A stretch of DNA of 64,000 bases from Promethearchaeota archaeon (GTDB lineage: Archaea; Asgardarchaeota; Lokiarchaeia; Sigyniarchaeales; SOKP01): NCBI GenBank assembly GCA_048938005.1, contig JBHLMQ010000004.1:66447-130446 (forward strand), read 5' to 3'. Below are positions 15,003 to 36,740 of this stretch, in pieces. Within the stretch, counting starts at the first letter, position 1. Each line of letters starts with the position of its first letter. The notes beneath the pieces are model-generated. The model did not search any database and was not told the DNA's origin. It saw only the letters and a list, made by a program, of their open reading frames with translations. Both the position numbers and the translations under genes were made by a program.

Positions 15003-16233
15003 ATGGATGTGATCAAGATTACAAGTCAAAATGAATTTACAACTAAATATATAATAGAAGTAAAATTTACCATTAAAGGTGTTGTGGAAAAAAGCGATAT
15101 AGTCGGTGCTATTTTCGGCCAAAGATAGATTAGAAACAAGCCAATTCGGCTAATTCGGCTAAACTGAAGGTCTTCTTTTAGATCTCGATTTGAGAGATCT
15201 CCAGAAGTCTGGTCGAATTGGGCGGATAGAAGTAGAAACCGAATCTAAAGAGGGAGTTTCTAAGGGCATTATTAAAATTCCGTCCTCATTGACTAGAAAG
15301 GAGACAGCATTATTGGCAGCGACTGTTGAAACTGTTTCTCGAGTTGGTCCATGCGAAGCAGAAATTAAGCTTATTGAAATTCGAGACGTTCGTGAAAGAA
15401 AACGGAAAAAAATTATAGAAAGAGCTGCAGAACTTTTAAAAGAATGGGACCAAAAATCTCTAGAGCAAAGTGAAATAGAAGAAAAAATAGATACTGATAT
15501 AAAGCTTGGAGAAATTATTTCATGGGACTCAGAGAATCTTCCTGCGGGGCCAGAAGTAGATAATAATCCAGATTTAATTATTGTGGAAGGACGAGCAGAT
15601 ATTCTAAATTTATTAAGAATTGGTGTTAAAAACACAATTGCTGTTCAAGGAACTCAAGTCCCTAAATCAGTAATTAAATTAGCAAAACAAAAAAAATCAG
15701 TAACAGCATTCGTTGATGGTGACCGTGGTGGAACAATTATTCTTAAGGAACTTTTGCAAGTTGCAAGAATTGATTATGTAGCTAGAGCACCCGATGGATA
15801 TGAAGTTGAAGAATTAACTAGAAAGCAAATGATAAAATCCTTACAAAACAAAAAACCAGCAAAATTTTTTAAGAATATTAAAGAAAAAGAGATTACGGAG
15901 AATGATATTAGTGATATAACAGAAGATGTTCATAAAATTTTAAAGAAGATTAAAGTTAAAGATGAATCTCTAATCAAGAATGCAATTGAGAATATTGAAG
16001 CAGGTTTTGGGATTGGACTTAATAAAAACCTCGAAAAGTTGTTTGATATGCCTGTAGGTGAAATTTTTGAAAAAATTAGGGACTTTAAAGATACTCAATA
16101 TTTAATAATTGATGGAATTTTGACAAAAAGGCTTCTTTCACTTGCAATAAATATGAAAATTAAATTTATTGCATGCAAAAATAAAGAAGAAGAATTATTT
16201 ATTCCTGAACATATTCTAGTACATTTCTTTTAA
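15003..16233 (+). CDS. dnaG: Archaeal DnaG (exosome-associated), two exons 15003-15122 and 15163-16233, 396 aa when joined
   Basis: Exon 1 ...TKYII...[15 protein letters not shown] joins exon 2 [36 protein letters not shown] and DGDRGG intact. Confidence 0.9.
15123..15162 (+). other. Putative 40-nt BHB-type intron in dnaG mRNA
   Basis: GGCC(15117-20) pairs with GGCT(15157-60) and each is followed by AAA; cutting after the second bulge base restores CAA-ACT in frame. Confidence 0.8.
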
Positions 16234-21984: not shown

Positions 21985-22087
21985 GCGTCGCTAGTCTAGG
22001 GGTAAGGATTCCGGCCTTCCAAGCCGGTGACCCGGGAAGATAATTCTGTTTCAGAATTTTTCGGGATTTCGATTCCCGGGCGACGCA
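21985..22087 (+). tRNA. tRNA-Gly(TCC) with a 31-nt intron at 53/54 (22037-22067)
   Basis: Acceptor GCGTCGC/GCGACGC, anticodon arm CCGGC-CTTCCAA-GCCGG; strict BHB CCCG/CGGG with bulges GGA and ATT. Confidence 0.95.
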
Positions 22088-36632: not shown

Positions 36633-36740
36633 GCCCACATAGTGTAGTCCGGTCTAGCATTCGGGACTGTCACTCCTGTCCGATATCAGAACCTCCGAAC
36701 GGGGAGACCGACGCGGGTTCAAATCCCGCTGTGGGCGCCA
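36633..36740 (+). tRNA. tRNA-Asp(GTC) with a 30-nt intron at 43/44 (36679-36708) and encoded CCA
   Basis: GCCCACA/TGTGGGC acceptor; BHB helix CTCC/GGAG with bulges TGT and ACC. Confidence 0.93.

Follow-up and report, generated by a model that had tools for sequence, protein, structure and literature searches.

The window analysed here, a stretch of 64,000 nt of DNA, carries an archaeal dnaG gene whose coding sequence lies in two pieces in different frames of the forward strand (Table 1). The frame read from position 15003 to 15128 begins with MDVIK and passes through the codons CAA (15120–15122) and AGA (15123–15125) into a TAG stop, and the remainder of the protein is encoded by a single open frame of 356 aa that begins 40 nt after the CAA codon. 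The preliminary description of this DNA had placed the N-terminus in another frame and proposed that removal of exactly these 40 nt yields a 396-aa protein free of other lesions; we reproduced this result, the first piece through its glutamine codon (40 aa) and the second (356 aa) joining to give a DnaG of that length. When compared with the NCBIfam profile for archaeal DnaG (NF003108), exon-1 residues 15–40 matched profile positions 1–26 and exon-2 residues 1–255 matched positions 27–282, so that the two pieces abut exactly and no part is absent. An intact second dnaG had been named at the outset as an argument against an intron, but the genome, which is 95% complete, holds dnaG in a single copy. 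In relatives, the start codon of DnaG is a GTG equivalent to position 15009.

Table 1. Features of the dnaG locus and its putative intron, in window coordinates
Feature	Position	Strand	Remarks
dnaG exon 1 (M1–Q40)	15003–15122	+	NF003108 match; conserved in 52 intron-bearing loci
Exon-exon helix, exon-1 strand AUUUUC	15111–15116	+	Partner GAAGGU 15166–15171; offset 2 nt from canonical position
Central helix H, 5' strand GGCC	15117–15120	+	In exon 1: Gly codon GGC and C of CAA; paired in 52/52 loci
5' three-nt bulge AAA	15121–15123	+	Predicted cut 15122/15123
Putative dnaG intron, 40 nt	15123–15162	+	Missing from 70/125 family loci, with coding sequence otherwise collinear
Intron-side helix h', 5' strand GA	15124–15125	+	Pairs with U15155 and C15156
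TAG stop of the exon-1 frame	15126–15128	+	Two codons into the intron
Distal intron hairpin AGCC-AAUUC-GGCU	15139–15151	+	96% paired in alignment; in MFE of minimal substrate
Central helix H, 3' strand GGCU	15157–15160	+	Inside the intron
3' bulge AAA	15161–15163	+	Predicted cut 15162/15163
dnaG exon 2 (T41–F396 and stop)	15163–16233	+	Holds the Toprim domain

The RNA motif at the junction

The GGCC strand at the end of exon 1 and the GGCU strand at the end of the insert pair at four of four positions and each is followed by AAA, exactly as had been described. The intron-side stem of the preliminary description was upheld in part: its GA strand forms two contiguous pairs (G15124–C15156 and A15125–U15155), while the extension AUUAG/CUAAU (15129–15133 with 15150–15154) is an alternative to the distal intron hairpin. 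The displacement of the exon-side stem by 2 nt, on which the description of the motif as a relaxed BHB had been based, was likewise found, and no helix abuts the 3' bulge, which consequently sits in a 5-nt loop (AAACU). When the 40-nt insert was shuffled, 12 of 20,000 sequences reached four central and at least two intron-side pairs in the frame-restoring register, and the same motif was obtained with 19 of 3,751 arbitrary combinations of start and length for an excision within 60 nt on either side. Folding of an 86-nt sequence from the window gave z = -0.84, and the BHB was absent from the fold. Motif searches for further copies of the intron in the same genome returned the dnaG copy alone, apart from hits resembling those expected by chance, so that it is not a multi-copy element there.

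Distribution among relatives

The junction was read in 125 dnaG loci from 124 genomes of a Lokiarchaeia-like family (f1). An insert is present at this codon boundary in 51 of these loci, 70 have no insert at all, and the other four, each from a different genome again, carry an insert 18 nt upstream of the main site that is related to the main intron. One genome of a sister family (G026) has an insert at the same boundary, making 52 genome loci in total. In an independent metagenome set, 48 of 54 contigs showed the junction, with the insert in 18, the upstream insert in four and none in 26. In a phylum-wide search of 400 genomes, 23 of the matches listed lay outside the order, and among them none had a stop or a match start near residue 37. 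We also looked for a cDNA-like or recently polymorphic contig, but intronless and intron-bearing contigs shared at most 91.3% identity in the initial 600 nt of exon 2. The intron seems to predate the family. It has been lost cleanly many times, and a few lineages have a related copy at the upstream position.

The inserts are 29–43 nt long, too short to be group I or group II introns. Both classes were considered and rejected, the catalytic core of such introns occupying hundreds of nucleotides, and the region drew no Rfam match at gathering score. A stop lies within zero to two codons of the intron start in all 52 loci, and the inserts occur in all three phases (phase 1, n=30; phase 2, n=18; phase 0, n=4).

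A conserved and covarying helix

Inserts with compensatory helix changes in related genomes had been suggested as a way of checking the intron, and this is what the comparison revealed. The central helix is fully paired (4/4) in every one of the 52 genome and 18 metagenome loci, in seven combinations of strands, and on 45 distinct sequences all 180 of 180 alignment cells are paired. The Gly codon changes at its wobble base in concert with the intron, giving GGCC/GGCU, GGAC/GUCU, GGGC/GCCU and others; the two alignment columns concerned (15, which holds the wobble base, and 57) contain CG 28 times, AU seven, UG six, GC two and GU two. None of 500 shuffles matched this covariation, slid registers pair in only 24–52% of cells, and RNAalifold recovered the same central helix unaided.

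The cut register is unique. Cut positions were taken from the coding sequence, and cutting after the second base of each bulge restores the sequence FGQTEG in 52 of 52 loci, as against 50 when the cut is placed at base 0, 51 at base 1 and 42 at base 3. The bulges themselves vary between loci, the 5' bulge being AAA, AGA, AAU or AAG and the 3' bulge AAA, AUA, UAA or AGA. The intron-side helix h' has at least two contiguous pairs in 50 of 52 loci (3 bp in 35, mostly GAU/AUC), with 93% of its alignment cells paired. A canonical exon-side helix abutting the 3' bulge, as in the strict hBHBh' form, was found in none of the 52 loci, and the motif is therefore of the relaxed HBh' class rather than canonical; an exon-exon helix of 3–6 bp offset by 2 nt is present in all 52.

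Thermodynamic prediction is less favourable. Among 42 minimal substrates, 25 have a minimum free energy structure that keeps the central helix and leaves the bulges free, and when flanks of 6, 12 or 20 nt are included the helix is present in 22/44, 5/45 and 3/46 structures, respectively, the average cost of forcing it being approximately 2.3, 4.5 and 6.1 kcal/mol. In context, then, thermodynamics do not favour the motif, and this counts against the BHB reading, as do the missing exon-side helix and the short h' (2 bp) of the dnaG in the window.

A bypass of the insert during translation, in which ribosomes would hop the gap in the style of phage T4 gene 60 or would shift frame, could call on the stop just past the take-off point and on the hairpin within the gap. 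Bypass of the gene 60 type needs matching take-off and landing codons, yet the last codon of exon 1 is CAA or CAG whereas UAA precedes exon 2 in 49 of 52 loci, where the 3' bulge AAA follows a strand ending in U. Furthermore, the covariation follows antiparallel pairing and not codon identity, and no single frameshift would work for inserts in all three phases. We find this explanation scarcely credible.

Selection on the exons

Purifying selection acts on both dnaG exons. Pairwise codon differences in the first 15 codons of exon 2 are synonymous in 8339 cases and nonsynonymous in 922, the corresponding counts for the last 27 codons of exon 1 are 13700 and 6893, and both exons are free of in-frame stops in 52 of 52 loci. 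An in-frame stop accompanied by a change of frame is what a decaying or non-functional gene, or an error of assembly, would produce. However, the insert is shared by 52 genomes assembled independently and by 18 contigs from metagenomes, and it interrupts exons that have no other lesion, in which synonymous changes dominate and which form the only dnaG of the genome, so that decay or artefact is extremely improbable.

The same data bear on the idea that the insert is never removed and that dnaG is a split gene, expressed as an N-terminal peptide of 41 aa plus a C-terminal protein initiated within exon 2, the two perhaps associating. Gene callers would indeed see a 41-aa ORF and a 347-aa ORF starting at TTG 15190. 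Nevertheless, no conserved start codon was found in exon 2 across the 52 loci, the first ATG, GTG or TTG falling at codon 4, 5, 7, 9, 12, 42, 50, 69 or 70, or being absent from the first 80 codons, and the residues encoded ahead of any such start (TEGLL) are invariant in the protein although each uses two to five codons. A split gene would also leave unexplained the helix that pairs and covaries in 52 of 52 loci between the end of exon 1 and the end of the insert. A search of the PDB by sequence found no solved archaeal DnaG N-terminal domain. In a structure predicted with AlphaFold for a relative whose dnaG is intact (mean pLDDT 81), the junction is placed inside a structural element, at the end of helix 26–37, within the N-terminal strand-helix-strand region and not at a domain border. 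We consider a split gene very unlikely.

Splicing enzymes and other candidate introns in the genome

The genome encodes two EndA-domain paralogs (198 and 205 aa, both above the Pfam cut-off) and one RtcB. The best PDB matches of the EndA-domain ORFs are chains of splicing endonucleases, the first protein being most similar to 3p1z_B and 3ajv_B. One account (PMC5829648) describes Asgard EndA as an (alpha-beta)2 enzyme with a broad-specificity L1 loop and the relaxed HBh' motif as a target of broad-specificity EndA.

Two tRNA genes of the window, located with Rfam rather than ARAGORN, also contain inserts, at non-canonical places. In the tRNA at 21985–22087, 38 nt replace the 7-nt T-loop, and our reading by hand places there an intron of 31 nt, with CCCG/CGGG as its helix and the cuts behind the second bulge base, bearing out for this tRNA the rule that had been proposed for those of the window. 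The tRNA at 36633–36737 has an insert of approximately 31 nt in the variable region. ARAGORN reported one intron-free tRNA in the window, and the way it reads the tRNA at 36633 with the -i option is doubtful.

A genome-wide scan for motifs joining two broken ORFs (4-bp helix, 3-nt bulges and 3-bp intron helix) gave 8559 matches against 9634 for a complement decoy, with no excess at any stringency; dnaG itself was missed because its h' has only 2 bp. The cbf5 gene was inspected and is uninterrupted.

These observations also bear on whether the insert might be removed from the RNA by another nuclease-ligase pair, or by an unknown ribozyme, that uses the conserved helix. This would be in keeping with a motif from which the exon-side helix is missing and which minimum free energy folding does not predict in context. 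Against it, the geometry is exactly that of an EndA substrate (four base pairs in the helix, bulges of 3 nt, and each strand cut behind the second bulge base), in an organism that has EndA, RtcB and non-canonical tRNA introns, and we therefore judge removal by other means to be very unlikely.

DISCUSSION

The 40 nt that interrupt dnaG are very probably a BHB intron of the relaxed (HBh') class, which EndA and RtcB would splice out of the mRNA and which is old in this Lokiarchaeia-like family and has been lost many times. The preliminary proposal of an EndA-type intron in an Asgard dnaG mRNA thus gains support from comparative sequence evidence, namely 52 loci with a covarying helix, inserts in three phases, selection on the exons, a single dnaG, and the presence of two EndA paralogs and RtcB. 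We infer from the same evidence that the dnaG mRNA is cut and joined and that EndA and RtcB are the agents. A tie between RNA decay and EndA/RtcB activity, which had been raised as a possibility, is purely speculative. Our current working model is that the pre-mRNA would fold with the GGCC of the exon-1 end paired to the GGCU of the intron end, leaving an AAA bulge after each strand and the intron hairpin abutting the 5' bulge. A two-subunit EndA would then cleave both bulges behind their second base, and RtcB would join the exons so that the message reads ...GGCCAA/ACUGAAGG... (the slash marking the junction) and encodes the 396-aa DnaG, with the intron released, probably as a circle. Translation of unspliced message would end at the stop two codons into the intron. 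As regards annotation, any dnaG that carries the intron will appear in gene calls as an orphan of 41 aa and a DnaG truncated at its N-terminus.

A bolder, tentative and rather doubtful possibility is that protein-spliced introns of Asgard messengers are both old and mobile, the dnaG intron having predated the family, been erased often and moved to a site 18 nt upstream, where its guide strand was altered to match the new exon sequence (GGCU to GUUU, GUCU or AUCU opposite AGAU). If true, this would mean that, in the prokaryotes most closely related to eukaryotes, introns relocate at the RNA level, for example when reverse splicing or ligation is succeeded by a copy back into DNA, and would suggest that more such introns lie behind ORFs called as ‘truncated’. 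The dnaG case offers a concrete instance of intron loss and relocation that bears on intron behaviour near the root of eukaryotes.

Introns of the tRNA (BHB) type are very rare in protein-coding genes. A broader parallel is the unconventional splicing of HAC1/XBP1 mRNA, a regulatory, stress-induced process in which IRE1 cuts and RtcB or Trl1 ligates. There too, cutting by a protein endonuclease at paired stem-loops is followed by joining of the exons with a tRNA ligase, and the reading frame changes, but the nuclease and the motif differ from those proposed here and no homology is implied.

Our literature search, which covered the main text of articles, found no dnaG intron, and crenarchaeal cbf5 was the only coding-region precedent that it returned; dnaG would be a second coding gene with a BHB mRNA intron and the first in Asgard archaea. 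As of 2020, the archaeal BHB-type mRNA introns named in one report (PMC7714728) were only that of crenarchaeal cbf5, in coding sequence, and one in a haloarchaeal 5' UTR. The cbf5 pre-mRNA intron, described from the Desulfurococcales and Sulfolobales (PMC2738675), resembles that of dnaG in being short, protein-spliced and located inside the coding region, where it causes mis-annotation, as well as in its tie to a hetero-oligomeric EndA and its ancestral presence followed by loss in some lineages. The two differ in gene and in phylum, dnaG of Asgard archaea as against cbf5 of Crenarchaeota, and in evidence, since splicing was demonstrated by experiment for cbf5 whereas for dnaG it is deduced from sequence; in the dnaG case, moreover, there is a related intron at another site close by. 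The haloarchaeal example, HVO_1309 of Haloferax volcanii, has a 46-nt BHB intron which the same 2020 report describes as proven by circRNA-seq and in vitro cleavage (PMC7714728). It too makes an mRNA the substrate of the tRNA splicing endonuclease, and its size is similar, but it lies in the untranslated leader and leaves the reading frame intact, whereas the dnaG intron interrupts the frame.

There is also a likeness to the non-canonical introns that interrupt tRNAs in Asgard archaea and in Thermoproteales and are cut by broad-specificity (alpha-beta)2 EndA (PMC5829648; 10.64898/2026.10.13.758758). They belong to the same HBh' class, with four central pairs and one outer helix, and share with the dnaG intron the enzyme set and repeated gain and loss. 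Here, in contrast, the host RNA is a messenger, so that codons constrain the half of the motif that lies in the exon and the intron must track the Gly wobble base. The approximately fifty related species constitute a well-replicated natural experiment, in which the guide strand of an intron follows a synonymous codon position, and the dnaG intron provides a precise target for studies of Asgard EndA specificity.

The dnaG gene and its insert

In the window, the dnaG frame that begins at 15003 on the forward strand reads MDVIK... and then runs into AGA TAG, and translation from 15163 gives a second, different frame that is open for 356 codons and carries the Toprim domain. The NCBIfam equivalog model of archaeal DnaG, NF003108, matches the first piece with positions 1–26 and the second with positions 27–282, so that exact excision of 15123–15162 restores a DnaG of 396 aa (40 + 356) in which no residue is missing and none is extra. 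The 40-nt insert and 396-aa product proposed in the preliminary description are thus borne out, the two model segments abutting across the insert, and an intact second dnaG, which that description held would count against an intron, was looked for in the genome (3.72 Mb, 101 contigs, 95% complete) and not found. A gene caller would be expected to report a 41-aa ORF and a 347-aa ORF with a TTG start at 15190.

The start of the gene drew separate observations. In two loci from different genera (L084 of G082 and L094 of G121) the third dnaG codon, directly after the presumed GTG start, is TAG, as against AAG or AAA in relatives, and in L069 (G085) the presumed GTG does not share the reading frame. 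In the family of the window's genome, dnaG may therefore really begin downstream of the GGAAGTGA box, a sequence resembling a ribosome-binding site.

Features of the dnaG insert, the interrupted tRNA genes and the candidate splicing enzymes (C-numbers are contigs of the window's genome, G000)
Feature	Sequence	Position	Strand	Detail
dnaG exon 1	window	15003–15122	+	
dnaG insert	window	15123–15162	+	40 nt
dnaG exon 2	window	15163–16233	+	
Central helix	window	15117–15120 with 15157–15160	+	GGCC with GGCU; AAA after each strand
Intron-side pairs	window	G15124–C15156, A15125–U15155	+	further pairing on intron side
Distal intron hairpin	window	15139–15151	+	AGCC-AAUUC-GGCU
Exon–exon helix	window		+	AUUUUC/GAAGGU; 2 nt off canonical place
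tRNA gene	window	21985–22087	+	38 nt replacing 7-nt T-loop
tRNA gene	window	36633–36737	+	about 31 extra nt in variable region
EndA paralogue	G000:C26	1893–2117	−	
EndA paralogue	G000:C56	18923–19171	+	
RtcB	G000:C57	59968–61275	+	

Inserts in related genomes

When exon 2 was compared with 41 relatives, the open frame ended exactly at the start of the exon-2 match in several of them. A genus-wide search covered 54 genomes and an order-wide search 154 (query, the intact relative DnaG P0003 from locus L003), and dnaG was fetched from every member of the window's family that has the gene, the junction being readable in 125 loci from 124 genomes (one with two copies). In 51 of these loci an insert separates the Gln codon of FGQ-TEG from the Thr codon (site A); four others have one 18 nt upstream of that point, where it separates Ile from Val in SDI-VGA (site B); the remaining 70 had none. 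Within the window's own genus (53 genomes read) the corresponding numbers were 15, 1 and 37. A 29-nt site-A insert was also found in one genome of a sister family of the same order (G026), and the dnaG matches of families f2 (12 matched genomes) and f4 (four) were uninterrupted. Metagenome contigs, scanned independently, yielded 54 dnaG loci, 48 with a visible junction, of which 18 had a site-A insert, four a site-B insert (after two false regular-expression hits were discarded) and 26 none. One bin, G129, holds two dnaG copies (L063 and L114), one intronless and the other with a site-A intron and almost the same as the G117 copy; a mixture of strains and a genuine duplication are equally likely here.

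A conserved, covarying helix at the junction

The coding join fixes the register, and in this register the 4 nt ending two before the 5′ cut were set against the 4 nt ending two before the 3′ cut. This central helix was paired in all 52 site-A genome loci, in seven combinations of exon and intron strand: GGCC/GGCU (28 loci), GGUC/GGCU (9), GGGC/GCCU (5), GGAC/GUCU (5), GGGC/GUCU (2), GGAC/GUUU (2) and GGAC/GUUC (1). Variation on the exon side falls at the wobble position of the Gly codon, and the intron strand tracks it. Across 45 distinct aligned junctions, 94% of the cells of the named structure were paired (100% for the central helix), and the variable central pair occurred as CG (28), AU (7), UG (6), GC (2) and GU (2), types that are spread over separate clades. 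The observed covariation score was reached by 0 of 500 shuffles, a count that is no probability, the junction sequences being related; sliding the partner by 1–3 columns left 24–52% pairing. RNAalifold returned the same four central pairs without a supplied structure. The alignment of relatives suggested in the preliminary description hence shows inserts recurring at one site (51/125 family loci and G026) with compensatory helix changes.

Base 2 of the bulge is the canonical EndA cut position. Cutting after base 0, 1, 2 or 3 restored FGQTEG in 50, 51, 52 and 42 of the 52 loci, the value for base 2 holding by construction, as boundaries were taken from the coding join; in loci whose two bulges are unlike in sequence, the cut position ceases to be ambiguous. 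The informative point is that the helix lies at a fixed distance from the coding-join cut in every site-A locus. An intron-side helix with two or more contiguous pairs was present in 50/52 loci and a canonical exon-side helix in 0/52, in keeping with the earlier label of a relaxed bulge–helix–bulge (BHB).

In the window itself, GGCC/GGCU and the intron-side pairs were found as first described, and the exon-side stem is present but offset by 2 nt, as had also been stated. Having four central pairs and a single outer helix, the motif belongs to the HBh′ class; its inferred 3′ cut site lies in a 5-nt loop, with no clean bulge. The motif arose in the frame-restoring register in 12 of 20,000 shuffled inserts and was satisfied by 19 of 3,751 arbitrary nearby excisions. 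A minimal substrate folds into it (−7.8 kcal/mol), but an 86-nt fold does not contain it (z = −0.84). The central helix appeared in the predicted minimum-free-energy structure of 22/44, 5/45 and 3/46 sequences with flanks of 6, 12 and 20 nt, respectively, and forcing it in flanked context cost about 2–6 kcal/mol on average. The motif is not favoured in longer context, and this, like the lack of a clean bulge at the 3′ cut site, counts against the BHB reading. A genome-wide motif scan for BHB joins between two ORFs gave 8559 hits against 9634 for a decoy, no excess.

The need for exact removal

The site-A inserts measure 29–43 nt (phase 1, 30 loci; phase 2, 18; phase 0, 4), and in 52/52 loci a stop follows in the exon-1 frame within 0–2 codons of the 5′ splice site. 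These stops read GAUAA, GAUAG or UGA (15126–15128 in the window) and may follow incidentally from the conserved GAU helix, or may be under selection for stopping translation of unspliced message. Both exons are open and conserved: pairwise codon differences were 8339 synonymous and 922 nonsynonymous over codons 1–15 of exon 2, where T-E-G-L-L is invariant in protein yet written with 2–5 codons per residue, and 13700 and 6893 over the final 27 of exon 1. Exon 2 has no conserved start codon across these loci, the first candidate ranging from codon 4 to none in 80 codons. Taken together, these observations rule out a decaying gene and make separate translation of the two pieces very unlikely.

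The exon boundary does not coincide with a domain boundary. In an AlphaFold model of an intact relative (44 aligned sequences, mean pLDDT 81, pTM 0.38), strand 12–20 and helix 26–37 precede the junction, and helix 46–52 and strands 59–77 and 100–111 follow it, with site A at the end of helix 26–37 and site B inside it.

History of the probable intron

We placed the introns on a maximum-likelihood tree built quickly from the exon-2 proteins (129 rows, with two short ones excluded, SH-aLRT support only, outgroup not on one clean side). All early-branching lineages of the family (g12, g17, g14 + g20 and g23 + g16) have the site-A intron, as does the sister-family genome, and intronless genes are nested higher; at least 11 state changes are required, six of them forced by well-supported branches. 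The simplest reading, which a gene tree cannot prove, is that the site-A intron is older than the family and was cleanly lost many times.

The site-B introns (L039 of G053, L072 of G107, L092 of G101 and L096 of G145; metagenome loci L242, L245, L246 and L253) are 30–31 nt long and have their own 4-bp helix, a strand altered to GUUU, GUCU or AUCU pairing with AGAU at the new exon position (by hand reading, all four pairs form in three genomes and three of the four in the other). The four genomic examples occupy four separate places on the tree, and three are similar to the 3′ portion of site-A introns (e.g. 22–23 of 27 bases; 0/200 shuffles reach the score). They look like relocated site-A introns.

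Putative splicing machinery and comparison with known introns

Two EndA-domain proteins and a single RtcB ligase are encoded in the genome. The closest PDB chains to the first EndA are 3p1z_B and 3ajv_B, the catalytic subunit of a crenarchaeal heterotetramer. In the window, two tRNA genes are interrupted at non-canonical positions; ARAGORN either overlooks or misreads each of them, and the intron of the first begins AAGAUAA, reminiscent of the dnaG intron start. Asgard archaea are described as having an (αβ)2 EndA with an L1 loop linked to broad substrate range (Kaneta et al., PMC5829648), and a 2026 preprint (10.64898/2026.10.13.758758) gives a two-subunit EndA in 44/60 Asgard genomes, with heavily interrupted tRNA genes.

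We consider the dnaG insert real, and its interpretation as a probable EndA-type BHB intron stands, on unusually rich comparative sequence support; the core proposal of a relaxed BHB intron in an Asgard dnaG is supported by the covarying helix and the encoded enzymes. Archaeal DnaG is an RNA-binding exosome subunit, according to PMC7667871; the intron's regulatory significance, if any, is speculative. In a literature search that covered few subscription journals, neither a dnaG intron nor any BHB intron in an Asgard protein-coding gene came up. Schwarz et al. (2020, PMC7714728) describe a 46-nt BHB intron in the 5′ UTR of a haloarchaeal gene and name cbf5 as the sole other mRNA example known by then. 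The closest case is the crenarchaeal cbf5 intron, which PMC2738675 presents as ancestral to a clade and lost in some lineages, as the dnaG intron also seems to be.
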